From the sequence record DRR378314_462: a stretch of DNA of 40,944 bases; one strand, written 5' to 3'. A program made the translations under genes and the position numbers. The notes beneath the pieces are model-generated. The model was not told the origin of the DNA and searched no databases. It saw only the letters and a program-made list of their open reading frames with translations. Within the stretch, counting starts at the first letter, position 1. Every line of letters starts with the position of its first letter. Positions 5,461 to 40,524 of the stretch are shown piece after piece.

Positions 5461-6928
5461 TTTCAAATCCCCCCAGATAAATACTTTTAAGTTGTTGATA
5501 GGCACGAAACCCCTGCACCCCTTTCTCACGCCCGACGCCGCTTTCGCCATAGCCACCGAACGGCGCCGAAATGCTGAGTTGCTTATAAGTGTTCAGCCAA
5601 ACCGTTCCGGCCTTTATGGCTTTTGCAACAGCCCATGCTTTTTGATAGTCACGGGTCCACACACCCGCCGCCAGTCCATAAACAGTATCGTTGGCACATG
5701 CGACCGCCTGCTCAACTGACCGAAAAGAACAAACCGCCAGAACACCACCAAAAATTTCTTCCTGAATAACCCCAGAGGACGGATCAAGTCCGTCAATGAT
5801 TGTTGGCGGAAAATACGCGCCCTGCTCATACGCCTCCCCTTGCGGCCGCTCACCTCCTGTAAGAATGTTGCCACCTTCCTGGCGGGCAACCTCCACATAA
5901 CTTTCCACCCGATCACGCTGTTGAAAAGAAGCCATGGGGCCAATATCACTAGCCGTGTCAAATGGATCACCAAGCTTCATGGCCTCTGCTTTTGTGACCA
6001 GCATCTGCAGAAATTCATCGTGAACAGATTTTTCCACCAGCAATCTGGACCCGGCAACACAAGATTGCCCCCCCGATGCAAAGATAGCGCCGATAACACC
6101 GTTGCAGGCCGCTTCCAAATCGGCATCGGCAAACACAATATTGGGAGATTTGCCTCCCAGCTCCAAAATAACCGGTTTAAACAAGCCTGCCGCGGTTTGG
6201 GCAATGATTTGTCCGGCAGTCGGGCCGCCTGTAAAGGATATTAAATCGCTAAGGGCGCTGGTAACCAGTTGATGCCCCACGTCCCCTCTGCCAGGAACCA
6301 CATTGAGCATTCCGGTCGGCAATCCCGCATCAAGGAAGCAACGGGCCAGCTCCATAGAGACCAGTGACGTTAATTCGGACGGTTTCAGAATTACCGCATT
6401 ACCTGCCGCCAGAGCGGGGGCGATTTTCTGTGCGGCCATTGTCAGAGGTGAATTCCAAGGCGTGATGGCTGCAACAACACCAAAAGGTTCATGAACTGTT
6501 GCCGTCAGGTAATTTCCACGGGCCGGTGGAATTTCATCCAACTGAGTTTCACAGAGTGCGGCAAAATACCGGACAATACCCGCCGCAGACAACGCCTGAG
6601 CCCGAGACTCTTTGAATGTTTTTCCATTTTCAGTGGATTGCAAAACCGCCAGCAAATCTGCTCGGTCTGCGATCAATTCAGCACTGCGAAAGAGGTAATC
6701 AGCCCGCTGATGTGGCAGTAGGCTTGCCCAGTCCCGAGATTGCCAGGCTGCCGCGGCGGCTTGCAAAGCATTTTCGACCTGTTTTGTTGATGCCGTGGCC
6801 AAATCCCCGATGAGTGCCCCCGAAGCCGGGTTTCGGATCTCTATAATTTCGCCGGTTCCGTCTATCCAATCTCCGCCAATTGGTAACTTCTGATGATCTT
6901 CAAACCTGAAGTCGAAATTCACACTCAT
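5444..6928 (-). CDS. NAD-dependent aldehyde dehydrogenase
   Basis: ITPWNSP, LKPSE, SFTGG, LELGGKSP, GQSCVAGSR (catalytic Cys), EEIFG, YGLAAG. Confidence 0.95.
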   Translation of the reverse strand: MSVNFDFRFEDHQKLPIGGDWIDGTGEIIEIRNPASGALIGDLATASTKQVENALQAAAAAWQSRDWASLLPHQRADYLFRSAELIADRADLLAVLQSTENGKTFKESRAQALSAAGIVRYFAALCETQLDEIPPARGNYLTATVHEPFGVVAAITPWNSPLTMAAQKIAPALAAGNAVILKPSELTSLVSMELARCFLDAGLPTGMLNVVPGRGDVGHQLVTSALSDLISFTGGPTAGQIIAQTAAGLFKPVILELGGKSPNIVFADADLEAACNGVIGAIFASGGQSCVAGSRLLVEKSVHDEFLQMLVTKAEAMKLGDPFDTASDIGPMASFQQRDRVESYVEVARQEGGNILTGGERPQGEAYEQGAYFPPTIIDGLDPSSGVIQEEIFGGVLAVCSFRSVEQAVACANDTVYGLAAGVWTRDYQKAWAVAKAIKAGTVWLNTYKQLSISAPFGGYGESGVGREKGVQGFRAYQQLKSIYLGGFENGITE

Positions 6929-23467: not shown

Positions 23468-24004
23468 CTACTGCTTGAAATCTTCAGGTTGAGGCTGGTT
23501 ACTTATCCGCATCAAAATGCCGGCAAGCATATGGATCAAAATAAGGGTAAAGGCAATCGGCACAGCAGAGGTGAACCAGATCATCTGCAGCGGTAACATT
23601 TCAGCCTGACGTCCTAAACTCCGCCCCAAAAAGCCCAGGGCCATGTTCATATTAATGCCAAAGATGGAATACCAGATCACAGGCACCGCAAAGAGCGTGA
23701 CACCGCAGGCCCGGATCAAGCCAAGGCTCATCCCGGCAAAACCGGGGACTTTGACCATGGCGGGAAATAAAGTCGGATCTGCGTGCAGACGAAAGGCAGC
23801 TGATGCCCCAAGCATTCCAGCCCAAACCATAGCCCGCCTCGCCAACTCTTCAGTCCAAACGGGTGGTGCGTCCAGTATATACCGGCTCACCACCTGCCAG
23901 GACGCGGCAAATACCATGACTGCGACTGCCAGAACCGCCCCCCAAAGGGCAACCCTATTCAGCCAGAGGGAAAGCTGATCAAGATATCTTGCCGCCCGTT
24001 TCAT
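23468..24004 (-). CDS. dctQ: TRAP transporter small permease
   Basis: QVVSRY......WTEELAR..MVW...LGA; 4 TM. Confidence 0.9.
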   Translation of the reverse strand: MKRAARYLDQLSLWLNRVALWGAVLAVAVMVFAASWQVVSRYILDAPPVWTEELARRAMVWAGMLGASAAFRLHADPTLFPAMVKVPGFAGMSLGLIRACGVTLFAVPVIWYSIFGINMNMALGFLGRSLGRQAEMLPLQMIWFTSAVPIAFTLILIHMLAGILMRISNQPQPEDFKQ

Positions 24005-24007
24005 TGC

Positions 24008-24985
24008 TTATTTCCCTTTAGCTTTTTCCCATTCAGCAATTTGCTCCTGGGAGAGAAGACCACTGTTGTAAGCCGGTGCAGACGCTTTGCGAAATTCTTC
24101 CCGCTGGGCTTCTGTCAGCTTTGAAATGGTGACGCCAGCCGCCTCCAGTTTTCCAAGTACCGCATCCTGGGTCTTCAGCCATTCACGGTTTGCTTTATTG
24201 GCGGCGGCAACGCCCATATCAACAACTTCCCGATCTTTCTTGCTGAGCCCCTGATACCAGGATTCCGATGCAATTGTGATCCGTAAAGAAGGGGCAACTG
24301 CCGCATTTGTGAAATATTTGATGAAATCAGTATGCCCGAACAGAAGCGGCACAAAAGCCGGGTTCATATAGCCATCAGCAACACCTGTCTGCAGTGCGTT
24401 GGGAACTTCCGCCCAACTGACGATAGTTCCGGTTGCCCCCCATGCTTTGTAAAGCTCAATCTGGCTTTCATCCAGCGCCCGCATGCGCAGCCCTTTCATA
24501 TCTGCAAGGGAATTAACCGGTTTCTTGGTATTAAAAATACCGGTCGCCTGACCGACTGCATTGACGGCCAGAACGCGAACACCGCTTGGGATCGTCTTTT
24601 CATTGATCTTTGCCAGCATACCGCCTTCAATCATGGCATGGTCTACTTCTGCCATGCTGGAAAAGAAATACGGAAGACGCAGACCGTAAATCAACTTATC
24701 CAATGAGCCGACAATATTCAAAGGTGACATGGAGACTTCAAGAAGGCCCTGGCTGACCTGATCGAACAATTCATCATCACCACCAAGTGCTCCGCGTTGA
24801 TATTCTTCGGCTTCAACCCCGTTTTCATTCAAATATGTGTTGAACGTATGGGCCCAAACATAACTTCCTGATCCTTCAAGATTTGGGGGGCTATCCAGTG
24901 CAATTTTGACTTCTGCACCGGCAGTCCCGGACAAAGCAAGTCCGGTTGCCACCAAACCTGTCATAACTAATTTACGAATTCCCAT
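24008..24985 (-). CDS. dctP: TRAP transporter substrate-binding protein
   Basis: Signal peptide; GALGGD, LPYFF, DMKGLRMR, WAEVPNALQTGVADG; start 24985 with AAGGAG SD. Confidence 0.92.
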   Translation of the reverse strand: MGIRKLVMTGLVATGLALSGTAGAEVKIALDSPPNLEGSGSYVWAHTFNTYLNENGVEAEEYQRGALGGDDELFDQVSQGLLEVSMSPLNIVGSLDKLIYGLRLPYFFSSMAEVDHAMIEGGMLAKINEKTIPSGVRVLAVNAVGQATGIFNTKKPVNSLADMKGLRMRALDESQIELYKAWGATGTIVSWAEVPNALQTGVADGYMNPAFVPLLFGHTDFIKYFTNAAVAPSLRITIASESWYQGLSKKDREVVDMGVAAANKANREWLKTQDAVLGKLEAAGVTISKLTEAQREEFRKASAPAYNSGLLSQEQIAEWEKAKGK

Positions 24986-25025
24986 CGATCTTCTCCTTGT
25001 TAGATGTTTCTTCATTTTAATTTTT

Positions 25026-26315
25026 TTATCCGCCGCCCATGAACCCCAATGCCCTGGGCAAATACAAACTGATTTCCGGTACGCGAACCAACAGGATCAA
25101 CACCCCGATCTGCACCAGAACAAAGGGAAGTATCCTCCACGCCAATCGCCAGTAATTCACGCCTGTGACTGTTGAGACGACAAGCAGGCATCCCCCCAAA
25201 GGCGGGGAGACCAAACCAATACAGAGGTTAAAGCAAAGAACAATCCCCAAATGAACAGGATCGGCCCCATGAGCCAAAGCAATAGGCGCAAGGAGTGGCA
25301 CCAGCAATGCCAATGCCACCGGAATATCCAGCACCATCCCCGCAATCAGGAAAATCACGTTCAATGCGATCATATAATCGGTCGGCCCAAGTCCAAGAGC
25401 GGCAACTGTATCTGAAATCGCTTCCGGGATCCGCTCAAGTGCGCCCAAATACCCAAGCGCAGATACCGCGCAGATAATGATGAAGATAGACCCCGACAGC
25501 ATGGCAGTTCGGCGAAGCCCCTCCAGAACAGAATCCCACTTCAGACCTTCATAGAACCAGCCCGCGCCAAGGGCGGCGAAAACAGCAACGGCGGCGGCCT
25601 CGGTCGGTGTCATCCAGCCAAACACGATCCCCCCCAGAATGATCACGGGCAACAGCAAAGCTGGCAGGGAATTCAACAATGTCGGAAGGAACGCAGGCGC
25701 ATCGCCTGCCTCAACCCGAGGATGATCGTGCCGCCATGCAAAAAAGGCGTTCACAATGATTAGAGAGCCCGCCAGAATTAACCCGGGAAAAATCCCAGCC
25801 AGAAAAAGAGACGTGACAGATGTCCCCATTAACGCCCCATAGAATATCAGAATGATGGAGGGGGGTACAATCGGACCGATGATTGAGGAGGCTGCAGTTA
25901 TTGCACTGGCATAAGTCAGGGAATATCCCCGCTCCCGCATGGCAGGGACAAGCGTATTGGAAAGGGCGGCGGCATCTGCGACCGCAGAGCCGGAAATTCC
26001 GGCAAAAAACACACTTGTCAAAATATTCACATGCCCAAGGCCACCCCGAAGGCGCCCCACCAGCGCCATGGAAAGGTTTATCAGTGCCGTTGTCACCCCA
26101 CCCCGGTTCATAAATTCCCCTGCGAGAATGAAAAGCGGCATGGCCATCAAGGCGAACACATCTATTTTAGAAAAAATCTGCTGCGGCAGGATCGCAAGAT
26201 ACCGCCCCTTATCAGCCAATATGAACGCCAACACCGTGCTGCCACCAATCACATAGGCGATGGCAAGACCGGAGGCGAGCAGAATAATCGCAATAAGCGG
26301 AACAAGCTGGATCAT
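25026..26315 (-). CDS. dctM: TRAP transporter large permease
   Basis: AMPLFILAGEFM, GISGSAVAD, PIVPPSI, TPTEAA, DPVHLG, SPPLG. Confidence 0.95.
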   Translation of the reverse strand: MIQLVPLIAIILLASGLAIAYVIGGSTVLAFILADKGRYLAILPQQIFSKIDVFALMAMPLFILAGEFMNRGGVTTALINLSMALVGRLRGGLGHVNILTSVFFAGISGSAVADAAALSNTLVPAMRERGYSLTYASAITAASSIIGPIVPPSIILIFYGALMGTSVTSLFLAGIFPGLILAGSLIIVNAFFAWRHDHPRVEAGDAPAFLPTLLNSLPALLLPVIILGGIVFGWMTPTEAAAVAVFAALGAGWFYEGLKWDSVLEGLRRTAMLSGSIFIIICAVSALGYLGALERIPEAISDTVAALGLGPTDYMIALNVIFLIAGMVLDIPVALALLVPLLAPIALAHGADPVHLGIVLCFNLCIGLVSPPLGGCLLVVSTVTGVNYWRLAWRILPFVLVQIGVLILLVRVPEISLYLPRALGFMGGG

Positions 26316-29169: not shown

Positions 29170-30120
29170 TTAGTTGGGAGAGAGCCCCAAAAAGGTGCCA
29201 TCGCTGCGACGGGTTACTTCTCGCATCAAAACGCCAAATCGCCCCGAAGTCCCGGGTGCAACGAAACCAATCGCATGAATGCGCGCTAACGGTTTGCCGG
29301 TAATTTTATTGGTGTTATATCGCTCCAGCCGGTCAATGACGTCGTTGTAGGAAGCACCGGTATAATCATCACCGATGATATAAATGGAAAGACTGATACC
29401 CGGCTTTGCATATTTCTTCAGAGCAACCTCTAGTCCTTCAACCGGACTACTGTTGGAACTACTGCGCCAACTGGAAAACGCCTTAAAGATATTCTGCCGG
29501 CGATTGGCCGTGTCGGGGATCCATTTCCCGCTATAGGCCGAGATTAAATGCACACCATTATCATTGAGGATCTGGAAGCCCTGTACCTTTGGATGGATGG
29601 CCAGAACGTTCTGCATTTCCCGTGTCACCTGCCGCCAGATAGCCTGCATACTGCCCGATGTATCTACAATAAACAGGACATAATCACTATCCACCGGAAT
29701 ACCGCCCACTTCCTCATCCCGCTTTTTAGGGTTGGTCGCCGGCCTGATGGTTGCACGGTTTAAACTCTCTTCGACCAGCTGCAACCCTTCCAAGTCATCT
29801 TCTGCTTTTGCCTCTGCCTGTTTAGCGGATTGTTTTTCCTGTTCAAGTTTTCGCACCGTTGCTTCCAACTGACCGATTTTTCCCTGACTGGAATTCAACT
29901 CTCCATCCATTTGGGATTTACGGGATTCCAGATCATCAATCATGCGTTCTGCTTTGGTGATTTGGGCCAATAAGTCCCTGGCCTGATCCATGGTTCCGTT
30001 AAATTCTCCATCCCCGGTTTTTGAAATCAGGATTAGCAGAACCACAGCCCCGAAACCGCAAGAGATGAGGTCCAGGAAGGAGAGGCTGAATAACTCCAAC
30101 GTCCTATTGCGGCGCCTCAT
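29170..30120 (-). CDS. ExbD/MotB-like TM anchor + coiled coil + vWA domain protein (B subunit 2)
   Basis: N-terminus FSLSFLDLISCGFGAVVLLILI; heptad-rich stalk; MIDAS FIVDTSGSM ... IYIIGDD ... IHAIGF; ATGA overlap with the upstream gene. Confidence 0.85.
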   Translation of the reverse strand: MRRRNRTLELFSLSFLDLISCGFGAVVLLILISKTGDGEFNGTMDQARDLLAQITKAERMIDDLESRKSQMDGELNSSQGKIGQLEATVRKLEQEKQSAKQAEAKAEDDLEGLQLVEESLNRATIRPATNPKKRDEEVGGIPVDSDYVLFIVDTSGSMQAIWRQVTREMQNVLAIHPKVQGFQILNDNGVHLISAYSGKWIPDTANRRQNIFKAFSSWRSSSNSSPVEGLEVALKKYAKPGISLSIYIIGDDYTGASYNDVIDRLERYNTNKITGKPLARIHAIGFVAPGTSGRFGVLMREVTRRSDGTFLGLSPN

Positions 30121-31187
30121 GGCCAACTCTCCGCTGGGCTGATCAGCAAACCCTTCGTTGCGAAGGTCCATCCCCAAAGCGCTGGCGCTGCTTCGGGGTC
30201 CCCTTCCAAGGGTAATAAAACAATATTTACCGGCCGCCCTTTATGAATGCCTTCTTTTTTGACAGTATGCTGAAACAGCTTTAGACGGCATTCCCCTGAA
30301 ATTGTTGAAGATTTTCCAAAGAGCGATGTACATTTTGAAAAGGGATTAATCGATCGATAGTTGGATGTTCCCTTGGTTGGCAAGCCGTCCGTCACCAGAT
30401 AATAATTTGTCGGTTGATCAGAAAAACCATTCACCGTTTCCAGTACCGCTTCCAGGTTTGTCGCCCCGGCGGGAACGACCCGATCTATGCTGTCAAATAC
30501 CAGTTGAACCGAAGCTGCATCAGAACCGGAAAACCAGTCGGAGGGGCCAATTGCAAATGCTTTTTCATTAAATCCGACAAACCTTGCGCGCGACTGTTTG
30601 GGAATGCGATTGGCCAACCATTTGACAATTCGCTGTACCCTCAGCCATTTCGGTCCTTGCTTCTTTTCCGCGTCAGAACTTGTTTTCCGGCTGATAATGT
30701 CGACCAGCATCTCATCCGTCATGGATGCGCTCGCGTCAATCAGAAACATAATCCGGCGTCCTTCAACTTTCAGCCCCAGCAGATATTCCTCTTCGCCGCC
30801 CTGATCAGATTGGACGACATCCGCTTTTTCCAACGGAGGCTTTTTGACGATCCGCTCTTTGACATTTTCAACATCCGCCACCTTATCCTCAGTCCGACTT
30901 TTAAACTCAGCAATAGAGCCCTGCAAATCCTGCTGCTGTCCGGAAAGACTTTGCAGCTTGGCTGTCAGTAGCTGGAGCTTCGCTTCCTGTTCAGTAACCG
31001 AGACTTCCAAGGCATCCACTTTGTCCTGACGCTGCTGAAGCTCCTGTTTCAGGCTATCCACTTCAACCGGCGTGTCTTCAGGTTGCAGTTTCAGCAGGAT
31101 CAAAATCAAAATGGCCGCACCAAGACCACAGGCCATAATGTCCAGGAACGAAAGATTAAACCCTTCTGTATCGTGGCGTTTGCGCAC
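30117..31187 (-). CDS. ExbD/MotB-like TM anchor + coiled coil + vWA domain protein (B subunit 1)
   Basis: N-terminus FNLSFLDIMACGLGAAILILILL; coiled coil; MIDAS FLIDASASM ... TNLE ... YLVTDGLPT. Confidence 0.85.
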   Translation of the reverse strand: MRKRHDTEGFNLSFLDIMACGLGAAILILILLKLQPEDTPVEVDSLKQELQQRQDKVDALEVSVTEQEAKLQLLTAKLQSLSGQQQDLQGSIAEFKSRTEDKVADVENVKERIVKKPPLEKADVVQSDQGGEEEYLLGLKVEGRRIMFLIDASASMTDEMLVDIISRKTSSDAEKKQGPKWLRVQRIVKWLANRIPKQSRARFVGFNEKAFAIGPSDWFSGSDAASVQLVFDSIDRVVPAGATNLEAVLETVNGFSDQPTNYYLVTDGLPTKGTSNYRSINPFSKCTSLFGKSSTISGECRLKLFQHTVKKEGIHKGRPVNIVLLPLEGDPEAAPALWGWTFATKGLLISPAESWP

Positions 31188-31197
31188 AGATGGCTTC

Positions 31198-31971
31198 CTA
31201 TTTACTGACGCGGTTCAAAAGGAATTTTTCGCAATATTCCTGGGTTCGGATCAACTGACCGTCCTGAAACCGCTGCAAGCCATGCAACAACAGCATTAGC
31301 GGAATTGAAAGACAAAGCGCCACCAGGGTTGAATTAAACGCAACACCAAGGCTATCTGTCATAAGGGTAATATCACCCGCCAGTGCTTCATCCGCCTGGG
31401 TTAATGCGGCACCGATGCCGCGAACTGTTCCAATAAAACCAAATGATGGAATGGCCCATATCACAAAACGGATCATGGTGTTGCCCGCATCCTGACGCAA
31501 GGCCAAGGCATCAACACTTAATGAAATCGCCTCCGACGTGCTATGAACATCATCGGTCATCAAATAGCGGCGAATACTGGCAAGCAATGTCTGCACCACT
31601 GGTGTGGTCGTAATTTTTTCCGGCAGTTGATCAATTTCCTGCATCGTTTTTCGCAATGTCTGTTTTTCATCTTCGCCCTCACCGGCCTCCAACATCGCAC
31701 CCAGAAAATCGATCCCATAAAGATGGTTATCGTTAAAAATTCCCCAATATCGGGCAAGGAGGAGACAAAGACACCAAAGGGCCAGCGTCACACAGATTTG
31801 CTGTTCCCAATCCTTAACAATTACAGTCAGTACCTGCGGTGCAGCCTCCCCTGCCTGGCGTGCAAGCGCGACCAGGCGTTCGGCCTCCGGGATGATGGCA
31901 ATCCAATAGATGAACCAGACACCCAAGGCACAGATCAGAAGCAACCCAGTGGCAAGAACAAAATTTTTCAT
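31198..31971 (-). CDS. MotA/TolQ/ExbB proton/ion channel family protein
   Basis: IWAIPSFGFIGTVRGIG and LGVAFNSTLVAL..S TM pair, plus two N-terminal TM segments. Confidence 0.9.
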   Translation of the reverse strand: MKNFVLATGLLLICALGVWFIYWIAIIPEAERLVALARQAGEAAPQVLTVIVKDWEQQICVTLALWCLCLLLARYWGIFNDNHLYGIDFLGAMLEAGEGEDEKQTLRKTMQEIDQLPEKITTTPVVQTLLASIRRYLMTDDVHSTSEAISLSVDALALRQDAGNTMIRFVIWAIPSFGFIGTVRGIGAALTQADEALAGDITLMTDSLGVAFNSTLVALCLSIPLMLLLHGLQRFQDGQLIRTQEYCEKFLLNRVSK

Positions 31972-32115
31972 TTAAATATCCACCGGAAAAGAGACAGGAG
32001 AGTTAAGCGTAATCGCAGATTTTCCACTTTGCGCATAGGCATATTGAAACAGAAAAACGGCCCCCAGGATTGCCAAACCCACAATCACATATTTTTGTCG
32101 CTTAATTTGTTTCAT
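31972..32115 (-). CDS. 47-aa signal-peptide microprotein ending FPVDI (not in ORF track)
   Basis: MKQIKRQKYVIVGLAILGAVFLFQYAYA|QSGKSAITLNSPVSFPVDI*. GAGGA SD, ATGA overlap with the upstream stop, and its TAA abuts the next ATG, so it fills the gap exactly. Confidence 0.85.
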   Translation of the reverse strand: MKQIKRQKYVIVGLAILGAVFLFQYAYAQSGKSAITLNSPVSFPVDI

Positions 32116-34118
32116 TGGACATCCTCATATAAATAACGGGCGATCCTAAAGCCGATTTTGTCGCTTCCTTCAGAAGCAGATGCCCGATAAGCCGGGCGCA
32201 GCTCTGTTAATGTTCCAGACGCCCAGTTAGATCCCTTTGTCATATGTTTCTGGCCGGTCTGATCACCAAGCGGGTCTTTAAAGGTTTGTGTCTTGAGCGG
32301 TGGCACGAGGGTATAATAATCATGAACCCATTCGGACACATTCCCAAATAGATCATACAAACCGGCTTGGTCCTTTTGAAAACTCTTTACTGGTGCCACC
32401 CCGGCATAACCGTCCACATATCCCGGAACATAAAACTTGGTTTTGCCGTTCGCTGCCTCGTCTGCGATATTGCCAGCGCCCTTTGGAATAACCGCTTCAT
32501 CGCCCCATGGGAAAATTGTCTGCTGTTTCCGTTTCGCCTTGCGCGCAAGCCATTCCCACTCCGCTTCACTTGGCAAGCGGTAACCTGTTGACGCTGGGTC
32601 GAAGCCTGCATATCTGGCTCCGTTAAACCGATAAAAAGGTGGCAGCTCCTCGCGCTCGCTTAACCAGTTGCAATATTGGGCAGCCTCACTCCAGTCGATG
32701 TTTGTCACTGGAAAATCTGGTCCTGCTTTATTAATGCGGCGAAATTGACTGAACTGCTTCTCTGTCACTTCGGTTTGGGCAATATAAAAATGGCGTTTCA
32801 ACGTAATCTGGCGCAGAAATTCGTTAGCCCTTTGTCCCTTTTCATGACGGGGCGCACCCATCAATATATCTGTCGGCTTAAACAAGATCATGTTCATGTT
32901 AGCCAGATTTTTGTAAGTCGGCTTGGCGGACGCCAATGTTGCTTCTTCGTTGGTCTTTAGTGTTACTGAAATCGTCGTCACCCGCGCTGGCGTCGGGCGG
33001 AATACCTTTTTCACCGTTTCATAGCCTTGCTTTTGCAAGGTGATTTCGTGGGAAATTGCAGGGAGCCGCAAGGTGGCGGGTGTCGTGCCATGCGGCTGGC
33101 CATTTATCATCAACGTGGCCGGGGGATCCGCCTGAATTCGAACTTCACCTATTCGAAGTTTCAGATCAAAGGCGACTTTCTTGCGCTCATCTGCCCGCAA
33201 GGTGACTTCCTGTTCCTGATATCCATATCCATCTTTTTCGTATCGAACATAATATTTCTGATTTGGCGCCAACTGGATATCCGACCCGGCCCGAACCGAT
33301 TTGCCGTTCACAGTCAACCTGCCCCCAGACGGATCAACCGATGCTGTAACAAAAGCCGGTTTTTGCTGCAGTCGATAATGACGATCCACCTGACTGTTCG
33401 AAAAGGTGATATCAATCTGATCAACTATAGGTGCAAATCCCTGCTTGGTAATCTTCACATCGTATAAACCTGCAGGCACTTCGAATTCTGCAGGTATAGT
33501 CTGCACAATTTCCCCGTTAAACATCACGGTTGCATCCGGTGGTGTCACATTAAGGGTCAAAGACCCCATTGCGGGTTTAAGCTCAAACGATTGTGTGAGC
33601 GTTTCACCGCGAGCTAGCTCAAGCTCTGTTTCCAACGGTTGAAAATACGGATGCTCGATCCTGAGATCAAAACGCCCTGCATCCAAGGTTGCTTCAAAAT
33701 TCTGTACCGGTGGGTACATCTGATCATTTAAATACCACGTCACAGGTTCGGTCAGGTTTGCGACATTCAGGTCAAGTTTGCCTGGCAATGGAACCATCTG
33801 TAAATTTAGGGTCTTTCCTTCTTCTTCAGGGTCGATAATTCGCGGCAGCTCTTCAAAACCGGGGGACTTGGCAGTAATCTTTGGATAACGCGAGAGCGAA
33901 AAAAGGCTTCCCTGCACATAAAATCCAATTCCGTCATCCACCTGAATTTCGGCAGCCTGAGCTGCGTCCAAAGGCGCAATCCGAACAGATGTCACTTTCA
34001 TCAGAAATAGAAAAACAGCGGACGCGAGCACAGCACCTAAAAGGATTACGCCTAAGCCCAGCAGAACAACCTGCTGCCGCCTGGCGGCTTTTTCAATTTG
34101 ATGTTTAAATTCGCTCAT
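32112..34118 (-). CDS. Membrane-anchored PEGA-repeat + FGE-sulfatase (SUMF1/PvdO-like) domain protein
   Basis: N-terminal TM; PEGA-type repeats (G.L.LNVTPPDATV..NG, G.YDVKITKQGF, ADPPATLMING...GTTP); FGE motifs TEVT, PV.NI.W.EA..YCNWLS, YRLPSEAEWE, GLYDL.GNV.EW, IGFR. Confidence 0.9.
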   Translation of the reverse strand: MSEFKHQIEKAARRQQVVLLGLGVILLGAVLASAVFLFLMKVTSVRIAPLDAAQAAEIQVDDGIGFYVQGSLFSLSRYPKITAKSPGFEELPRIIDPEEEGKTLNLQMVPLPGKLDLNVANLTEPVTWYLNDQMYPPVQNFEATLDAGRFDLRIEHPYFQPLETELELARGETLTQSFELKPAMGSLTLNVTPPDATVMFNGEIVQTIPAEFEVPAGLYDVKITKQGFAPIVDQIDITFSNSQVDRHYRLQQKPAFVTASVDPSGGRLTVNGKSVRAGSDIQLAPNQKYYVRYEKDGYGYQEQEVTLRADERKKVAFDLKLRIGEVRIQADPPATLMINGQPHGTTPATLRLPAISHEITLQKQGYETVKKVFRPTPARVTTISVTLKTNEEATLASAKPTYKNLANMNMILFKPTDILMGAPRHEKGQRANEFLRQITLKRHFYIAQTEVTEKQFSQFRRINKAGPDFPVTNIDWSEAAQYCNWLSEREELPPFYRFNGARYAGFDPASTGYRLPSEAEWEWLARKAKRKQQTIFPWGDEAVIPKGAGNIADEAANGKTKFYVPGYVDGYAGVAPVKSFQKDQAGLYDLFGNVSEWVHDYYTLVPPLKTQTFKDPLGDQTGQKHMTKGSNWASGTLTELRPAYRASASEGSDKIGFRIARYLYEDVQ

Positions 34119-35604
34119 TACTGATTACCGTTACCTCAATCTGTCGATCCTCCGGCTTTATTGTGACCGAAACCGATTTCGTTCTAAAGCCTTCCCGCCG
34201 CCCTTCAAACATATACTCTCCCGGTTTCAGTTTGATCTTGTAGCGTTCAACCACACCGACTTTTCCAATCCCCCGTACACTGACATTTGTCAATTGATCG
34301 GAGATCACCCAGACTTCGACTTCAATATTTCGGCGTTCGATTTCAGTCTCAAGTTTGTTTTCAAGCTTGGCAAGGCCGGGGCTTAACGCTGAATAAAGAG
34401 CGGCAGCCTCCAGCGTCCGGTCCGCCTGTTTGCGAACTGTTTCTGCTGACAGTCGCTGGGGTGCCCCCAGAAATTTCTGAATTTGTGCCGTCGCCTGCAA
34501 TATTTTTTCTGACAGATTTATCGTTTCAACGATTTCTCCATTATTCGGTCGCAGGGCATTTGCATTTTGATATTGTCTCAACGCTTCATCCCAATCATCT
34601 GCTTGGATAGCAGCCTCACCACCTGCTACGAACTGCCGAAAGCTCAACTCTTCTTTCAACTGATTAACCAGCCGCAACAGATTTTCAGTTTCCTCCCGAT
34701 TTGGAAATATCTGCCTGGCCTTTGAATATGCTGATTGCAGCTTTTGAAGATTTTCTTCACGGCTTGCCGCCAGTCCTGCTGCCACATGTCGATCATAAGC
34801 CTGTTCTGTCAGCAGGGACTCTATGTCTTTAATTCGTTGCTCATATGTTATCCGATCCGGATCCAATTCAACAACCTGTTTGGAGAGCGCCAGTTCCTTT
34901 TCCAAATTATTTTCGGTCGCCGCCACACGGGCTTGATCGATCAGGCCCAAAAGCATCGGTAATTTTTCAATACGCGACAGTAAATTCAAAGCCTGTTCAT
35001 CTACTGGCTTCAATTCTAAGGCACGATTAATCTGAAATAAGGCTTCGGCATGATCATCAGCCTGAAAAGCCAGGCGCGCATTGATCAGCGCCTCTTCAAA
35101 AGTTGCTTCATACTGTGCGGTGGCTGTACTTGCTGCCGAGATCAACTTATTGGCTTCTTCAAATGCCGGTTCCAATTGGCCATTGGCAAGCTGTTGAATG
35201 ATTTGATCCTTCAGGGACAGCAAGTCTTTTTGTATCTGACTATCCCATCCTCCAAACCCTTCGGATTTTACTGTTTCCTCATACGTCATTTCATAGCGGT
35301 TCAGAACGTCTATTATCTCTTGGCGGCTGCGATCTTGGGATATTTGCGGAGTAGAAGGTATCGGCGGGGTTGAGGGCTCCAATTGAGGATCAGTTTTCTC
35401 AACAGTGTATGGCTGTCTTTCCGGTTGCAGCTCCGACGGCACCTCCATGACAGGATCCGCCGTCTGTACAGCAGACTGATGATCGAGCTGGGTGACCAGA
35501 TAAATAACGGCCGCTCCCAACAGCAATATCAACACGGCCAAAACCGTTATCATTAACTGATTTCGGGATTTCCGGGTCGCTTCTTCCAGCTTCTGTTCCA
35601 ACAT
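34105..35604 (-). CDS. Membrane-anchored Pro-rich linker + TPR/helical repeats + C-terminal PEGA-like beta domain protein
   Basis: N-terminal TM; PSTPPIPSTP linker; TPR-like ALELKP, VELDP, NALRP turns; C-terminal LKPGEY.FEG.REGFR. Confidence 0.75.
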   Translation of the reverse strand: MLEQKLEEATRKSRNQLMITVLAVLILLLGAAVIYLVTQLDHQSAVQTADPVMEVPSELQPERQPYTVEKTDPQLEPSTPPIPSTPQISQDRSRQEIIDVLNRYEMTYEETVKSEGFGGWDSQIQKDLLSLKDQIIQQLANGQLEPAFEEANKLISAASTATAQYEATFEEALINARLAFQADDHAEALFQINRALELKPVDEQALNLLSRIEKLPMLLGLIDQARVAATENNLEKELALSKQVVELDPDRITYEQRIKDIESLLTEQAYDRHVAAGLAASREENLQKLQSAYSKARQIFPNREETENLLRLVNQLKEELSFRQFVAGGEAAIQADDWDEALRQYQNANALRPNNGEIVETINLSEKILQATAQIQKFLGAPQRLSAETVRKQADRTLEAAALYSALSPGLAKLENKLETEIERRNIEVEVWVISDQLTNVSVRGIGKVGVVERYKIKLKPGEYMFEGRREGFRTKSVSVTIKPEDRQIEVTVISNERI

Positions 35605-35612
35605 GGCGCTTG

Positions 35613-36836
35613 TTACAGTTGTTTTTCAGGTGTCTTTTCCTGCTCATAAATTTCTTTCAGGAAACTCCGCCACTCTGAAAACTGCTTTTCTGCCGTTCCG
35701 GTCAATTCTTTGGTTTCTCCTTCAAACTCAACGACTTGAGGTGCCAATTCTGCATCTACGGATTCGCCTAGCTCATCCAATGTATCAGCATGGAATTTGG
35801 TTTCATTGCTGGTTTTAAAGGCTTCGGAGAAAAGAACAGCTGATCCCACGCCAGCAACCGCTGCGCCAGCCATTGCCCCAGTTGAGCGGCCATAACTGCC
35901 ACTATTCCCACTGGCAACAGCCAGCCCAACACCTAAAATCGCCAGCAAAACACCGCCAACCACCTGGGCCGTCTGTTTCTCTTCCGCTTCTTTTAAAGCA
36001 ATTTCAGCTTCCTGGCTTTGCTTTTGCCAAACGACATAACTGGATGACAGATTAGCGTTAAAGGCTTCATAATGTTGCTGCAGATTATCCACGTAAAGCT
36101 GGTCTCTAATTCGGATCGCCCGAATTCGACGCAGCATTGGATCTTCTTCACTTGGCAGGCTCACCAACTCTATTTTACCATCTTGTTCTCGGATATGCTC
36201 TGCAAAGGCCTGCTCTGAAAAGTTACTGCCAAACCGCATTTCAGTAACTGATTTCAGTAAGGCCAGCTCGGTCGCATCCGCAAGCTCCAACCGCTTCACA
36301 AGGTCATCAGCAGCCTGTTCAAAAAGCGGATCATAAGGATCCTTGCCTTTGTTTCGAATGTTTTGATGAAAACGCTCCGACACTTCATGTTCATACTCTT
36401 CCTCGTACCAGGGAGCGCCGGATATATCTAAAACGTTGAGAGACATACCCACTTCCAAACCAGTGGATTTATCAATGGTTCCAAGGATATAAAGATCGCC
36501 TGTCGCTTCTGAATTGGGCGTAACACGTACAGCCCCAAACTTTCCAGTCGCCTCCAGCTTATCTTTTAAATTCAAAGCGAAACGGACGGCTTCGGCCTTG
36601 CGAAGTTCCGGCCAAATTCGCTCTTCTTGCAGAACATCATCATCTTCTGGGATGTTGGGATCAAATTCAGGGATGATAATATCCAACTTCGGGCGATCCG
36701 CTTCAGGCGTCACTTTTGCAGCTGCCATCACGTCACTGGAAACACGAGGCCCCACCCGGGTGGACATACCCGGTGTCACGCAACTGGTTAAGAGAAAACA
36801 GCTACACACCAACCAGCCCAAAAGATTTTTGACCAT
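35613..36836 (-). CDS. Lipoprotein with coiled coil and glycine-zipper hydrophobic hairpin
   Basis: Lipobox LTS|C; VVGGVLLAILGVGLAVA...GAMAGAAVAGVGSAVLF; GGAGAG SD before ATG 36836. Confidence 0.75.
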   Translation of the reverse strand: MVKNLLGWLVCSCFLLTSCVTPGMSTRVGPRVSSDVMAAAKVTPEADRPKLDIIIPEFDPNIPEDDDVLQEERIWPELRKAEAVRFALNLKDKLEATGKFGAVRVTPNSEATGDLYILGTIDKSTGLEVGMSLNVLDISGAPWYEEEYEHEVSERFHQNIRNKGKDPYDPLFEQAADDLVKRLELADATELALLKSVTEMRFGSNFSEQAFAEHIREQDGKIELVSLPSEEDPMLRRIRAIRIRDQLYVDNLQQHYEAFNANLSSSYVVWQKQSQEAEIALKEAEEKQTAQVVGGVLLAILGVGLAVASGNSGSYGRSTGAMAGAAVAGVGSAVLFSEAFKTSNETKFHADTLDELGESVDAELAPQVVEFEGETKELTGTAEKQFSEWRSFLKEIYEQEKTPEKQL

Positions 36837-36861
36837 ACTCACTCTCCACATGTCCGCCCGT

Positions 36862-37458
36862 TTAAATCTGAGGCAATCCCTTTAACTTGCGATATTCATT
36901 CCACAACTTCGCCCGCTTTTCAGGGTTCGGTTCATTTTCGGCAGCTTCGCGAACCCGTTGCTGCAGTATACTATCATTATCTGTCGCAGGTATATCTTCA
37001 GGTGCTTTCCCATTGTTTAAAGTTTGCTGTTGCCGTGCAGTGGATTGCTGATCGCTCTCTCTTGGGTCAATAGGATTACTGGCAGTTGCATCAGTTTCAG
37101 CTTTTGCCTCGGCCTGTTCTGTTCCCTCTATTCCTGTTGATGCCGTTGAAGCTGCAGAAGCACCCGCCGCGCCGCTGCCTGATCCACTGCCATCAGAACC
37201 TGAAGATCCGTTGCTATTTTGACTGGCAGAGGATTGCTGCAAGCAGTTTTCATATTTATTCAACGACTCAAATAGCGCGCTATCCATTCGCTCTGTGATT
37301 TCCTGCTGCGTCAGCCCCTCTCCTCCTCGATACTCAACGGCATTCTCAGAGCAGTCATTATTTTCATTAGATTGCCCATGGGCAACCGGCGCAAGCCAAA
37401 TGCAGCATGCGAAGACAAGAGACAACGGCACGTTCAGGAACTGTTTCATAACCCGCAT
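36862..37458 (-). CDS. Exported hypothetical protein with Ser/Gly/Ala low-complexity linker and helical C-terminal motif
   Basis: Signal peptide ...PVAHG|Q; two Cys in the mature N-domain; C-terminus DNDSILQQRVREAAENEPNPEKRAKLWNEYRKLKG. Start could be 37470, 37458 or 37449. Confidence 0.7.
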   Translation of the reverse strand: MRVMKQFLNVPLSLVFACCIWLAPVAHGQSNENNDCSENAVEYRGGEGLTQQEITERMDSALFESLNKYENCLQQSSASQNSNGSSGSDGSGSGSGAAGASAASTASTGIEGTEQAEAKAETDATASNPIDPRESDQQSTARQQQTLNNGKAPEDIPATDNDSILQQRVREAAENEPNPEKRAKLWNEYRKLKGLPQI

Positions 37459-37484
37459 AAACACCATCACAAAAGCAGCCTTAT

Positions 37485-37781: not shown

Positions 37782-38966
37782 TTATCCAGGAGATATTCCC
37801 CTAAGCCGTTCTGCGCGGCGTCTCAAAAATTCCAGCGTCGTCAACATCAGCACTGACAACACAACCAGTATAGTCGCCACAGCCAGAATGGTCGGGCTGA
37901 TTTGCTCCCGCAGACCTGTAAACATCTGCCACGGCAATGTTTTCTGCCCTGCCGAGCCGACAAAGAGAACCACAACCACCTCATCAAATGAAGTGATAAA
38001 GGCAAACAAACCACCGGAGACCACGCCTGGCAAAATCAGGGGCATCTGTACCCGGAAAAAGGTCGTGATCGGGTTCGCGCCCAGGTTGGCTGCCGCGCGT
38101 GTCAAGCTATGATCAAATCCAACAAGTGTGGCTGTCACCGTGATAATGACGAACGGTATGCCAAGAGCCGCATGGGCAAGTACGACGCCAACATATGTCC
38201 CCTGCAAACCAACCCGGCTGTAGAAGAAATACATGCCCGCTGCAGAGATGATTAACGGCATGATCATCGGAGAAATCAAGATCGCCATTATTGCCCGGCG
38301 AAAAGGAACAAACGGCTGGCTAAGACCGATCGCCGCTAGCGTGCCTAACGTAACAGATATGATTGTTGCCGCAGGTGCAATTGCAAAACTATTCTTGATG
38401 GCCCCTTGCCAATCGGAATTGGTAAAGAAATCTTCATAATGCTTTAGAGAATAGCCCGCAGGATCGAAGTTCAACATCTCTGGTGTGAATGTGAAAAAGT
38501 TCTCTGCATTAAAGCTGAGCGGCATCACTACGATAATCGGGGTAATCAGGAAAATGAAAATCGCCCAGCAAATAACAACGAAAGTGTGATGCCAAAGCAC
38601 TTGGCCAGTTGTCGCATAGGATGGAAGACGTCGCCGATATTCGCCTGTGGCGATCCAGAAGACAAACCAGTTGAAAACCCAACCAAAAATAACACCAATT
38701 ACCGCACCTGATATCTGCGCCTGCAAATACCCAAGAACAAGCCCAACTGCGAGCAGAACGAATTGGGATATCCGTTTCGACTTAATCAGCCGAACCATCA
38801 GGAAAGCAGCGATAGCGCCGACAACCAAACCCGCTGCAATGCCGACCAAGGGCATATTCTGGGTCATTCCAAACAGCAACCCAAATGCGGCTAGGAAGAA
38901 GGCGCCTCCGCCAGCGATTAACTGGTTCGTGGCGATGATTGCTTTTTCTTTTTTCAGTACGGTCAT
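37782..38966 (-). CDS. Polyamine-type ABC transporter permease (PotC-like) with extra N-terminal TM region
   Basis: FLITPIIVV.PLSF, SP.I.P.I, AH..LG.PFV, EAA-like LTRAAANLGA, F.TSFDEVV, TLP. Confidence 0.9.
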   Translation of the reverse strand: MTVLKKEKAIIATNQLIAGGGAFFLAAFGLLFGMTQNMPLVGIAAGLVVGAIAAFLMVRLIKSKRISQFVLLAVGLVLGYLQAQISGAVIGVIFGWVFNWFVFWIATGEYRRRLPSYATTGQVLWHHTFVVICWAIFIFLITPIIVVMPLSFNAENFFTFTPEMLNFDPAGYSLKHYEDFFTNSDWQGAIKNSFAIAPAATIISVTLGTLAAIGLSQPFVPFRRAIMAILISPMIMPLIISAAGMYFFYSRVGLQGTYVGVVLAHAALGIPFVIITVTATLVGFDHSLTRAAANLGANPITTFFRVQMPLILPGVVSGGLFAFITSFDEVVVVLFVGSAGQKTLPWQMFTGLREQISPTILAVATILVVLSVLMLTTLEFLRRRAERLRGISPG

Positions 38967-38970
38967 ATCC

Positions 38971-40524
38971 TCAGCCCCCCAGTTTGACGTTATCGATGCC
39001 GACAATTCGGTCATAAGCCCAATAGAGTAGCAGGACCACAAGCAGCAAAATGGTTCCGAGTGCGGCTGCAAGACCCCAGTTTAGTGAACTTGAAATGTGG
39101 TAGGCAATCCGGTTTGAAATAAAAGTGCCCGTTGTTCCACCAACAATTTCCGGTGTGATGTAATAGCCGATGGATAGAATAAACACTAGGATGGACCCAG
39201 CCCCGATACCTGGAACCGACAACGGGAAATAAACCCGCCAAAATGCAGTCCAATTGGTCGCCCCAAGTGACTTTGCCGCCCGGGTATAGGTCTCGGGAAT
39301 GGTTCGCATCACTGAGTAAAGCGGTAGGACCATGAAGGGTAATAGAATATGTGTCATGGCAACGATTGTACCAAACTGATTATTAATCAAAACCAGCCGT
39401 CCCGCTTCATCCACCAGATTAAGCCAGACCAGGGTATCATTAATGACGCCCTGCTGTTGCAGCATCACCTTCCAAGCTGAAGTTCGAACCAGCAACGAGG
39501 TCCAAAACGGCAAGAGGACCATGATCATCAGGAGATTGGCTTCGCGCGCGGGCCGGTTGGACATTAGCCATGCAATCGGATAACCGAGTAGGATCGCACA
39601 TCCGGTAATCACCATTGACATAAACAGGGTTCGCCCGAACAGAATCCCATAAATCCGTTCATTCTCAGGCCGAACCGAATAGCCGTCAAAATCCTTCTTC
39701 AGATCCGCAGCATTCAAGAAATAACCTTCAGTATATGTGGACGAGTAGGTTCGAAGCGTTTTCCACACATCCTCACTTAACCAGTCTTTATCAAATTTCT
39801 GAAATGCGGCTCTAAAATCCACAGTTTCAAAATCAGAGACAGCGTTGGCCGATTTCTGGATGAGGGCATTCCCGGCTGTATCGCCGGAGATTTGTCTCAT
39901 ATCATCGTAAAGAGCGACGAAGAGAAAATCTTCGAGCCCCTCTTCTTTGGGGACATCCCCATCTTCTATGACATACTCCTGCCAGGCTGAATAAGCCCAC
40001 ATCGCCCGGGGCAAGACGTCATTAACCGCATCATCCTCGGACAGCGTCTGCCAAGTTGCGTAGTCATTCCATTTGGGATCAATTGCTGCAAACTGGTCTC
40101 TGTATACTTCCACATCAAGGCGGCGAACCCGGCGCCCGGACTTACGGAATAACGAAGAAATACCTGTTTGCTCATAATTCAAGCGCGAGCCAAGGCGTGT
40201 ATGTTCTTTCTTTTCAGCAGCAACATACATATCCACGTAAAGCGCAGAAAACGTCGCCTGACCGGGAACGATCGGAGCTTTCTCCTCGTCCTCATCTATC
40301 ATCGCGACGGTTTGCGGCAGTGTTTCTTCGACGATCTTATTCTCTACAGATCGGAATAACATATCCGCAATGGGGGCAATAAAAGTAATTAGAATGAATG
40401 CCAGCAAAGGTGCAATCAGCATCAGAGCCCTAAATTTCTGCAGTCGCAATGACCGTTGCAAGCTGCGTTTTAGGGGCGTCCCGTCAGCTGCCAACACGGG
40501 ACCATCTTTGATCGTATCACTCAT
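38971..40524 (-). CDS. Polyamine-type ABC transporter permease (PotB-like) with large periplasmic insertion
   Basis: LLGYPIA, LPFWTSLLVRT.AW, HILLPFMVLPLY, RAAKSLGA, G.YITP..VGG, NWGLAAAL. Confidence 0.92.
   Translation of the reverse strand: MSDTIKDGPVLAADGTPLKRSLQRSLRLQKFRALMLIAPLLAFILITFIAPIADMLFRSVENKIVEETLPQTVAMIDEDEEKAPIVPGQATFSALYVDMYVAAEKKEHTRLGSRLNYEQTGISSLFRKSGRRVRRLDVEVYRDQFAAIDPKWNDYATWQTLSEDDAVNDVLPRAMWAYSAWQEYVIEDGDVPKEEGLEDFLFVALYDDMRQISGDTAGNALIQKSANAVSDFETVDFRAAFQKFDKDWLSEDVWKTLRTYSSTYTEGYFLNAADLKKDFDGYSVRPENERIYGILFGRTLFMSMVITGCAILLGYPIAWLMSNRPAREANLLMIMVLLPFWTSLLVRTSAWKVMLQQQGVINDTLVWLNLVDEAGRLVLINNQFGTIVAMTHILLPFMVLPLYSVMRTIPETYTRAAKSLGATNWTAFWRVYFPLSVPGIGAGSILVFILSIGYYITPEIVGGTTGTFISNRIAYHISSSLNWGLAAALGTILLLVVLLLYWAYDRIVGIDNVKLGG

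Follow-up and report, generated by a model that had tools for sequence, protein, structure and literature searches.

A TolQ-like channel gene followed by two membrane-tethered vWA genes: a predicted proton-driven motor with paired central subunits in a conserved eight-gene operon

The DNA analyzed in this study is a stretch of 40,944 nt from sequence record DRR378314_462, hereafter called the window, and its main subject is the range 29170-31971 on the minus strand. Here a tightly packed minus-strand operon ends with the gene of a MotA/TolQ/ExbB-family channel protein (gene 6; 31198..31971; 257 aa; PF01618) and with two genes, B1 (gene 7; 30117..31187; 356 aa) and B2 (gene 8; 29170..30120; 316 aa), each encoding a transmembrane (TM) helix, a long helix, and a vWA (von Willebrand factor A) domain. 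B1 and B2 are most likely the functional counterparts of ExbD, TolR, or MotB, with the gene 6 product as their channel. In its fuller form this reading, which we consider reasonably probable, makes them the pore-inserted central subunits of a proton-driven motor of the MotA/TolQ/ExbB type and of the composition A5:B1B2, the heads of which hold an acidic ligand through their metal ion-dependent adhesion sites (MIDAS). Insertion into the pentamer, ion binding by an Asp residue of each helix, rotation, the ligand, and the output are all inferred here. Judged by homology, the window holds a member of the published TPH-vWA class, with no difference of kind. The main idea of the initial annotation, which had been made from the DNA sequence and its translations alone, is correct in outline and is not new.

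TolQ-like motors with paired "TPH-vWA" proteins were predicted in silico (Mol Biol Evol 2025;42:msaf138; PMC12204202). According to the sections of that paper that treat the class, it occurs in Proteobacteria and Verrucomicrobia, with a seed from Idiomarina loihiensis; it is characterized by tight co-occurrence with tolQ homologs, by the absence of tolR and exbD nearby and of the SHLS motif, by a conserved Asp in the "transpore helix", and by its presence "predominantly in heterologous pairs". In the AlphaFold3 (AF3) models presented there, both Asp residues are inside the threonine ring of the pentamer (PMC12204202, section 8, Fig. 4). B1 is 37% identical over 356 residues to a protein of Idiomarina sp. 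(E 2e-67), and it is by this full-length identity that the window is assigned to the class. A fragment from I. loihiensis is also among the B1 matches, and the Idiomarina sp. protein presumably corresponds to the seed of the published class.

The N-terminal sequences are MRKRHDTEGFNLSFLDIMACGLGAAILILILL for B1, where the codons of Asp16 and Cys20 occupy 31142-31140 and 31130-31128, and MRRRNRTLELFSLSFLDLISCGFGAVVLLILI for B2, where the codon of Asp17 occupies 30072-30070 and the corresponding Cys is residue 21. In both proteins a basic patch is followed by a TM helix with the motif SFLD...CG(L/F)GA, and the two helices, NLSFLDIMACGLGAAILILILL in B1 and SLSFLDLISCGFGAVVLLILIS in B2, are near-identical. 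This resemblance had been noticed by the initial annotation, and it was recovered when the family profiles of the first 45 residues were compared with each other (probability 99%, E 5.3e-18), so that by this measure the N-terminal likeness of B1 and B2 is far beyond chance. At full length, BLASTP finds the two proteins alike over the N-terminal 164 residues only (26% identity, E 2e-6), the heads having diverged past BLASTP recognition. The TM helix is at residues 11-32 of B1 (31157-31092) and 12-33 of B2 (30087-30022). It is followed by a single long helix, at residues 43-115 in B1 (31061-30843) and 44-123 in B2 (29991-29752), and by the vWA domain, at approximately 140-356 and 140-316, respectively. 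The long helix thus comprises 73 residues in B1 and 80 in B2, and the initial estimate of a coiled coil of roughly 80-100 aa was too high. The three genes are closely spaced: 10 bp separate the channel stop from the GTG start of B1, which is preceded by the word AGGAAG, and the likely start of B2, the ATG at 30120, overlaps the B1 stop as ATGA and is preceded by a Shine-Dalgarno-like word, GGAGAG. The mechanical start of the B2 open reading frame (ORF) is the TTG at 30177.

Relatives of B1 are numerous. There are 2694 of them at E<=0.001 among 7109 candidates, the nearest being Sneathiella proteins with 71% identity, and a HMMER search of 1.84 billion cluster representatives gave 2433 matches at E<=0.001, of which 869 have E<=1e-10 and 306 have E<=1e-30. 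The best 150 B1 representatives were taken for a closer comparison; 130 of them have the N-terminus, 14 are gene calls starting after the Asp, and 6 are fragments. Conservation of the Asp in homologs, on which the initial interpretation depended, is complete: it is present in 130/130 representatives with the N-terminus and in 24/24 sequences of alignment A1, and Asp17 of B2 in 79/79 orthologs. The strict pattern F-L-D...G-A is found in 125 of the 130 B1 representatives, and the remaining 5 have a G-S variant. The shared Cys four residues after the Asp, which the initial annotation had singled out as unexplained, is nearly always there and is not strictly invariant: it is found in 127/130 B1 representatives (the rest having A, S, or V), in 21/24 sequences of alignment A1, and, as C21, in 77/79 B2 orthologs.

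As a control, the mean column conservation of the TM segment was compared with that of the whole protein in 62 sequences from the same loci. The TM helices of B1 and B2 are conserved far above the ordinary anchors of the same operon: the values for helix and whole protein are 0.76 vs 0.59 in B1 and 0.89 vs 0.64 in B2, whereas for two plain anchors they are 0.31 vs 0.43 (the TM/TPR protein, gene 3) and 0.34 vs 0.54 (the PEGA/FGE-sulfatase protein, gene 4). The third and fourth helices of the channel score 0.96 (TM3) and 0.88 (TM4) in the same control. Within B1 and B2, conservation is lowest in the coiled-coil segments (0.37 and 0.40), and the distance from the Asp to the MIDAS is 132-141 residues in 74 of the 79 B2 orthologs, the other 5 being artefacts of the pattern.

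In public gene calls, among them P0125, P0138, and P0142, B1 often starts at a Met just after the Asp (MxCG(L/F)GA...). Such late starts account for the 14 calls among the 150 representatives and for 339-aa entries among the nearest matches. They drop the basic patch and the SFLD motif, hiding the key residue from surveys based on annotation.

On a helical projection, S(-3), D(0), C(+4), G(+7), and A(+8) lie within about 100 degrees of one face. This small polar stripe, the Cys included, may let water or protons reach the Asp and let the helices pack tightly. An essential disulfide at Cys(+4) is argued against by its replacement with S, A, or V in a few members of the family.

The channel protein matches PF01618 (MotA_ExbB; 8.7e-12, 45.3 bits, with a cut-off of 22.9) and has four predicted TM helices. 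Its pore motifs are P175...G181-T182-V183 in TM3 and F212-N213-S214-T215 in TM4, and the stretches G181-T182-V183-R184-G185 and F212-N213-S214-T215 are invariant in 77 channel orthologs, T182 and T215 being found in 77/77. In Escherichia coli, as described in the part of a paper that deals with these pores, Thr145 and Thr178 of TolQ form a polar ring around Asp23 of TolR, Thr148 and Thr181 of ExbB are the equivalent for ExbD, and both pore helices are kinked by prolines, Pro138/Pro187 in TolQ and Pro141/Pro190 in ExbB (PMC12215075). The spacings from P175 to T182 (7) and from T215 to P224 (9) in the window protein are those of P138/T145 and T178/P187 in TolQ and equally those around T148 and T181 in ExbB. 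Given the motif and the spacing to the prolines, T182 and T215 are likely equivalent to T145 and T178 of TolQ. In the hhalign alignment, PSFGFIGTVRGIG of the channel falls on TFLGLFGTVWGIM of Sneathiella TolQ (GFIGTV on GLFGTV), which bears on the register of GTV only.

Monomers of B1 and B2 were modeled by AlphaFold2 (AF2) with family alignments, and the models were compared with PDB structures by Foldseek at E<=0.001. In the B1 model (mean predicted local distance difference test score, pLDDT, 75.6), a helix at 11-33 precedes a continuous one at 43-115, and an alpha/beta domain follows from near residue 140; in the B2 model (mean pLDDT 78.1), the helix at 44-123 is followed by a similarly classed alpha/beta domain. 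Foldseek gave 292 PDB matches for B1 and 273 for B2, and the top ranks are all vWA domains, those of PilB, alpha2delta, ITIH1, CLCA1, ANTXR2/CMG2, TFIIH p44, the integrin I domains, and BatB. In these models, both heads fold as vWA domains. Sequence models barely detect them: the VWA_2 model matches B1 with E 0.013 and gives no match for B2, and a search of PDB sequences with the B1 profile returned coiled-coil noise and a weak vWA match (E 0.025) only.

The intact DxSxS MIDAS motifs read from the translations, DASAS in B1 (30737-30723) and DTSGS in B2 (29664-29650), are invariant in 24/24 B1 and 79/79 B2 sequences, respectively. With the distal ligands assigned from motif position, the B1 site consists of D151, S153, S155, T243, and D267, all invariant in 24/24 sequences, and the B2 site includes D153, S155, S157, and D251, each found in 79/79; in B2, Ser222 and Ser224 (79/79) stand where the distal Thr is expected. 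The B1 head also has conserved Cys286 and Cys300, and its C-terminus reads ...GLLISPAxxWP. As proposed in the initial annotation, the MIDAS heads could act as an integrin-like clutch on a protein ligand.

The suggestion that two different B subunits pair with each other is supported by both gene order and modeling. B2 directly follows B1 in 80/80 related loci and in 3/3 more distant ones. The full-length B1+B2 complex model scored 0.82 (0.81, 0.82, and 0.82 in individual runs), and the best of three controls scored 0.00; the mark of the B1+B2 model is reached by 51/78 solved complexes and by 2/108 mismatched pairs. Contacts agree between the runs by at least 72%, and the pLDDT of the partner is at least 75. 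The predicted interface combines a parallel coiled coil with heptad spacing, B1 42-116 with B2 43-120, and a head-to-head contact via the C-terminal strands, B1 344-355 with B2 307-316. Both strands belong to stretches that are invariant in their respective families. The complex model supports binding of B1 to B2 as a prediction, and the strict pairing of the genes, together with this model, supports the heterodimer.

Several observations weigh against B1 and B2 as pore-inserted subunits of a TolQ-like channel. The comparison of their first residues with known B subunits, suggested in the initial annotation, was made for the first 45-50 residues of each against an ExbD/TolR profile of 12 sequences from five operon-carrying genomes. 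The N-terminal profiles of B1 and B2 gave probabilities of 1.1% and 0.7% (scores 12.0 and 11.0), not above the controls, and a lipoprotein signal peptide used as a control scored higher (15.5, 5.4%), so that homology of the B helices to the ExbD/TolR helix is not established by profile comparison. The hhalign alignments of both B1 and B2 do put the Asp on the Asp of ExbD/TolR, with scores that are not significant and give no evidence of homology. In the AF2 monomers the first approximately 40 residues have low confidence (block means of 34-58 in B1 and 36-40 in B2), the TM helices lie outside the confident B1-B2 interface, and the complex model is unable to separate the heterodimer from homodimers of the paralogs. 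On the channel side, P224, the second helix-kinking proline, is not conserved across the family. Comparison of the channel family with Sneathiella TolQ by hhalign gave a probability of 1.7% over 17 columns, and the best PDB match of the family profile, Bacillus MotA (6ysl), is remote (E 0.31); the channel protein alone has no usable match among PDB sequences. For the initial proposal that the Asp-bearing helices are B-subunit helices, the profile comparison was not significant; indirect support comes from the invariant Asp, the helix conservation, the pore threonines, the absence of a local ExbD, TolR, or MotB gene, and the published AF3 model.

The same anatomy could serve another purpose. 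The assembly of the 5:2 type could be a ligand-gated ion channel or sensor, in which occupancy of the vWA/MIDAS heads gates the proton path, similar to release of the MotB plug, and the output is signaling or depolarization with no mechanical work. Two intact MIDAS sites suit ligand sensing, and the Pfam and NCBIfam scans revealed no obvious outer-membrane load in the operon, such as a TonB-dependent transporter or a secretin. However, the same scans found no encoded cytoplasmic signaling domain, the stalk is long and its length is kept (the 132-141 residues from Asp to MIDAS in 74/79 B2 orthologs), and the five conserved envelope partners extend in the direction of the outer membrane. Since the long, kept stalk and the envelope partners fit a mechanical trans-periplasmic device better, we regard the sensor as unlikely.

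Alternatively, B1 and B2 could be inner-membrane-anchored periplasmic vWA proteins with a scaffold or adhesion role, the helices of which only anchor them or dock outside the pentamer like TonB and TolA, while the channel uses a B subunit encoded elsewhere or works alone. The profile comparison and the lack of a confident position for the TM region in the AF2 and complex models agree with this explanation, and host genomes carry several ExbD/TolR genes. However, in G001, the closest relative genome examined, the four PF02472 matches are all at least 86 kb from the channel gene of the operon, and the ExbD (PF02472), OmpA, and MotB models have no match in the operon proteins scanned (Pfam, NCBIfam). 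The TM helices are where B1 and B2 are best conserved (0.76 and 0.89), whereas the true anchors of the operon are at 0.31 and 0.34, and an invariant buried Asp would be costly for a plain anchor. On inspection, neither helix has a His or a motif of the SHLS type (for the motif, see the section of PMC12204202 on this class), and the AF3 model published in the same section has the helices inside the pentamer (PMC12204202). Taken together, these points make a purely anchoring role quite improbable.

Finally, it is extremely unlikely that B1 and B2 are soluble proteins of the periplasm, with a coiled coil and a vWA domain and no relation to the channel, and that their N-terminal helices serve as Sec signal peptides and are cleaved off: the basic n-region and hydrophobic stretch are superficially similar to a signal peptide and gene callers often start after the Asp (14/150; the 339-aa entries), but an invariant 12-residue motif has the Asp inside the hydrophobic core, no small-x-small site is seen by inspection after the helix (...LILILLKLQPED in B1 and ...LLILISKTGDG in B2) in contrast to the canonical AYA|Q site of the mini-peptide encoded in the same operon, and the helices are the most conserved segments of B1 and B2, whereas signal peptides are normally among the least conserved segments of proteins.

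The motor pair belongs to a conserved set of eight genes and not of three. With one genome scanned for each species, at least 581 B1 relatives were found among 600 matched stretches, and the best 80 loci were examined. By their titles, these loci belong to Alphaproteobacteria (Sneathiella, Rhodospirillales, Magnetovibrio), Gammaproteobacteria (Methylophaga, Amphritea, Thiotrichaceae, Methylomonas), Betaproteobacteria (Nitrosomonadaceae), Zetaproteobacteria (Mariprofundus), metagenome-assembled genomes (MAGs) of the Desulfobacterota type, and Candidatus Binatia. Named relatives in the match lists include Pseudoalteromonas, Alteromonas, Idiomarina, Methylophaga, and Sneathiella. The order of the genes, as mapped by tblastn, is fixed: the secreted 202-aa protein, the 412-aa lipoprotein, the 499-aa TM/TPR protein, the 668-aa PEGA/FGE protein, the channel, B1, and B2, which were matched in 59, 62, 67, 75, 79, 80, and 80 of the 80 loci, respectively. 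Where the secreted protein is matched (59/80), it is always the first in the cluster. The channel gene precedes B1 in 79/80 loci, and the sole miss begins at a contig end. Most of the missing genes are likewise at contig ends, and all five large genes are full-length in 61 loci.

A few loci depart from this order. In L020 and L023, 1.6-2.4 kb upstream of the channel gene are without a PEGA/FGE match, and in L031 a 1.2-kb gap separates the PEGA/FGE and channel genes; all three loci are from Zetaproteobacteria MAGs. In L051, about 4 kb upstream of the PEGA/FGE gene have no matches to genes 1-3.

Across a phylum sample of 401 genomes, the channel subfamily was found at E<=1e-15 in 20, in one copy each, that is, in about 1 genome in 20. 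This sample yielded the three more distant loci mentioned above, and the same order is kept in them. Two of the three, L132 and L133, have an extra gene of 407-446 aa (5247-6587 and 5136-6359, respectively, both on the minus strand) between the channel gene and B1, for which no Pfam family was found, and, after B2, extra lipoprotein-like genes and a gene similar to M48 peptidases.

The eighth gene (gene 5; 31972..32115, minus strand) encodes a mini-protein of 47 aa, and most records probably lack its annotation. Its ORF occupies the 140-bp gap in front of the channel gene; the ATG overlaps the stop of gene 4 as ATGA, and the stop abuts the channel ATG. The encoded protein has a signal peptide ending with AYA|Q, followed by approximately 17-19 residues ending with ...LNSPVSFPVDI. 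An equivalent mini-ORF is present in the same gap in 71 of the 75 loci, 70 of them identified by a filter and one (L012) by eye. The tail has the general form ...LNSPxSFPVDI, with L at -11, F at -5, P at -4, D at -2, and I at -1 (71/71 for every one of them), and 69/71 end exactly there. Only 1 predicted protein among 5.8 billion clusters matches it, which indicates that it is usually missed by gene callers. We suggest the mini-peptide as a candidate ligand of the MIDAS heads. A role of its hydrophobic segment as a pore helix was considered and rejected, as the segment has no acidic residue, is poorly conserved, and has a canonical AxA cleavage site.

The remaining four genes of the operon, all on the minus strand, encode envelope proteins, and no protein of the operon is above the cut-off of any NCBIfam model. 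Gene 1 (36862..37470) encodes the predicted secreted protein of 202 aa, with a hydrophobic signal at the N-terminus, a Ser/Gly-rich middle of low complexity, and a conserved C-terminal part of about 45 residues; it has no Pfam family above the cut-off. Just upstream of it, at 37513-37485, TTGACC-17-TAAAAT is promoter-like by consensus match only.

Gene 2 (35613..36851) encodes the predicted lipoprotein of 412 aa, with the lipobox LLTSC (Cys24), a hydrophobic segment rich in Gly and Ala near residues 295-342, and a C-terminal tail that is acidic. It has no Pfam or NCBIfam family above the cut-off, nor does its C-terminal part alone in Pfam, and its neighbors in the ESM Atlas are clusters that are unnamed or labeled "lipoprotein family".

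Gene 3 (34105..35604) encodes the bitopic TM/TPR protein of 499 aa, in which a TM anchor at the N-terminus is followed by a linker rich in Pro, by TPR-like helical repeats (the TPR_2 match is weak, E 1.4e-4, and below the cut-off), and by a conserved C-terminal beta domain. The C-terminal 70 or so residues are its best-conserved part; no Pfam family was found above the cut-off for the C-terminal part.

Gene 4 (32112..34118) encodes the bitopic TM/PEGA/FGE-sulfatase protein of 668 aa, which starts with a TM anchor, continues with four PEGA domains, and ends in a domain of the FGE-sulfatase fold (32112-32921). The Pfam matches are FGE-sulfatase (2.5e-38) and PEGA (2.4e-32, in 4 stretches). The best NCBIfam match, GldK/PorK (TIGR03525), has 87.8 bits and is far under the cut-off of 350, and the closest solved PDB chains by sequence are those of FGE (1.3e-15) and PorK (2.8e-12). 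No Cys of the domain is aligned opposite the Cys-bearing segment of human FGE, which we take to be the site of the catalytic Cys pair, and for this reason the domain is probably a binding module rather than an enzyme.

Outside the operon, the upstream flank (37782-40524, minus strand) contains two large multi-pass membrane ORFs, probably transporter permeases as far as their sequence shows, and the downstream flank (23468-26315, minus strand) contains EamA-like, Cupin/HTH-like, and TRAP-transporter-like ORFs. The EamA-type gene, the sole flank ORF compared, is next to the operon in 0/80 loci.

If B1 and B2 are the central subunits of the gene 6 channel, the motor could work as follows. The N-termini of both proteins would remain in the cytoplasm, and their SFLD...CG(L/F)GA helices would lie side by side within the channel pentamer, with Asp16 and Asp17 facing the ring of channel Thr182 and Thr215. 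Protonation and deprotonation of both Asp residues would lead to relative rotation of the pentamer and the dimer. In the periplasm, the chains of B1 and B2 would wind around each other, parallel and in register, as a single coiled coil of about 75 residues, or about 11 nm if fully helical. This axle would end in the heterodimeric vWA pair, joined by the C-terminal strands. Each intact MIDAS should bind an acidic group of a partner, and the proton-motive force would be passed to whatever the vWA heads hold, whereas MotB anchors to peptidoglycan and ExbD and TolR hand force to TonB and TolA. Within the operon, candidate ligands are the ...PVDI tail of the mini-peptide, the lipoprotein's acidic tail, and the conserved C-terminal end of the secreted 202-aa protein.

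A more far-reaching and rather doubtful picture would assign a part to all eight genes. They could encode a trans-periplasmic rotary machine of Proteobacteria and allies, parallel to the type IX GldLM-PorKN system, in which the proton-driven core turns the axle of about 11 nm. The MIDAS heads would clamp either the ...SFPVDI tail of the 17-19-residue peptide, by the Asp at position -2 and the free carboxylate, or the lipoprotein's acidic tail. A surrounding cage in the periplasm would consist of the PEGA/FGE-sulfatase and TM/TPR proteins, and the S(-3)/D/C(+4)/G(+7)/A(+8) stripe would be the proton path. The elements of this picture were not found in our literature search.

To our knowledge, the ion-driven 5:2 motors (MotAB, ExbBD, TolQR, GldLM, and ZorAB) are the only bacterial route of energy from inner membrane to periplasm and outer membrane. 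The class considered here replaces the usual head of the B subunit with a heterodimeric, integrin-like vWA pair. No phenotype was reported for it in the literature searched, and the search retrieved no other paper on the class and none with the peptide tail in a relevant context. The fixed eight-gene operon was not found in print. The words "PEGA" and "sulfatase" do not occur in the main text of the paper on the class, the sections of which on these motors are silent on the five other conserved genes and the mini-peptide, as well as on the head contact between B1 and B2 and the Cys at D+4 (PMC12204202). What this analysis adds is the eight-gene context with its fixed order, the mini-peptide, a conservation control for the helices, and a model of the B1-B2 complex. 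The partner genes in fixed order and a very small peptide, for the most part unannotated and invariant in its acidic tail, make the question of function more testable, and the peptide is a concrete ligand candidate. The relatives in named genera suggest Pseudoalteromonas, Alteromonas, Idiomarina, Methylophaga, and Sneathiella as organisms for genetics.

Among other known systems, Zorya ZorA-ZorB has a MotAB-like 5:2 core in a non-flagellar role. The window operon differs in having no ZorC- or ZorD-like genes, and its assignment to Zorya was rejected: no PADLOC Zor model matched the seven operon proteins scanned at E<=0.01, and the matches to other defense-system models were weak and driven by coiled coils. 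The operon resembles the Bat systems in the membrane-tethered vWA proteins (BatA/BatB) and in the presence of a TPR protein, and BatB structures (3ibs, 4jdu) are among the fold matches. In contrast to Bat/MoxR operons, the Pfam and NCBIfam scans found no MoxR ATPase or DUF58 gene here. The Bat operon, as far as we know, has no MotA/ExbB gene.

In the GldL-GldM/PorL-PorM motor, also of the 5:2 type, the two central subunits form a long periplasmic dimer towards the outer-membrane-proximal PorK/GldK-PorN assembly. The likeness of the window operon to this type IX machinery, by analogy only, extends to gene 4, with its FGE-sulfatase fold, its best NCBIfam match to GldK/PorK, and its match to solved PorK. 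The GldK score of gene 4 (87.8 vs 350), its TM anchor, and its lack of a lipobox set it apart; the B subunits here bear the acidic residue; and the hosts are Proteobacteria and allies, not Bacteroidota. No matches to GldL, GldM, GldN, or SprA were found in the Pfam and NCBIfam scans of the operon proteins.

The gliding system AglR-AglQ-AglS of Myxococcus has one TolQ-like A subunit and two different B-type subunits. The window operon is similar in this composition, whereas AglQ and AglS are ExbD/TolR-like and the B subunits here are vWA-headed. Pairs of heterologous tolR-like genes are mentioned in the same paper as the TPH-vWA class, in the sections that discuss it (PMC12204202), and the vWA protein of the Agl system, CglB, is described as a separate outer-membrane lipoprotein in the relevant part of another (PMC9946355).

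With MotA-MotB and PomA-PomB, the window system has in common a four-TM A subunit and a single Asp-bearing B helix, and MotA 6ysl is the best solved match of the channel family (E 0.31). It differs from them in that no OmpA-like peptidoglycan-binding domain or plug was found, the C-terminal domains are vWA, and no flagellar genes are near the operon. The likeness to ExbB-ExbD and TolQ-TolR includes the PF01618 channel with the pore motifs GxxGT(V) and (S/T)T, a bitopic, N-in partner whose helix bears a single Asp close to its cytoplasmic end, and the local word F-[LV]-D-[IV]-M, common to the B helices and the collected ExbD/TolR sequences. However, four TM helices are predicted in the channel here compared with three in ExbB/TolQ, and there is no SHLS partner of the TonB/TolA type. 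B1 and B2 are without the PF02472 periplasmic domain, having a coiled coil and vWA heads in its place, their helix profile is not significantly related to that of ExbD/TolR, and they are two different B subunits, whereas ExbD and TolR form homodimers. With the TPH-vWA class, finally, the window operon shares a tolQ-like gene and, after it, a pair of distinct genes for TM-tethered vWA proteins, the occurrence in Proteobacteria, the absence of a local tolR or exbD and of the SHLS motif, the Asp-bearing helix, and the threonine ring.

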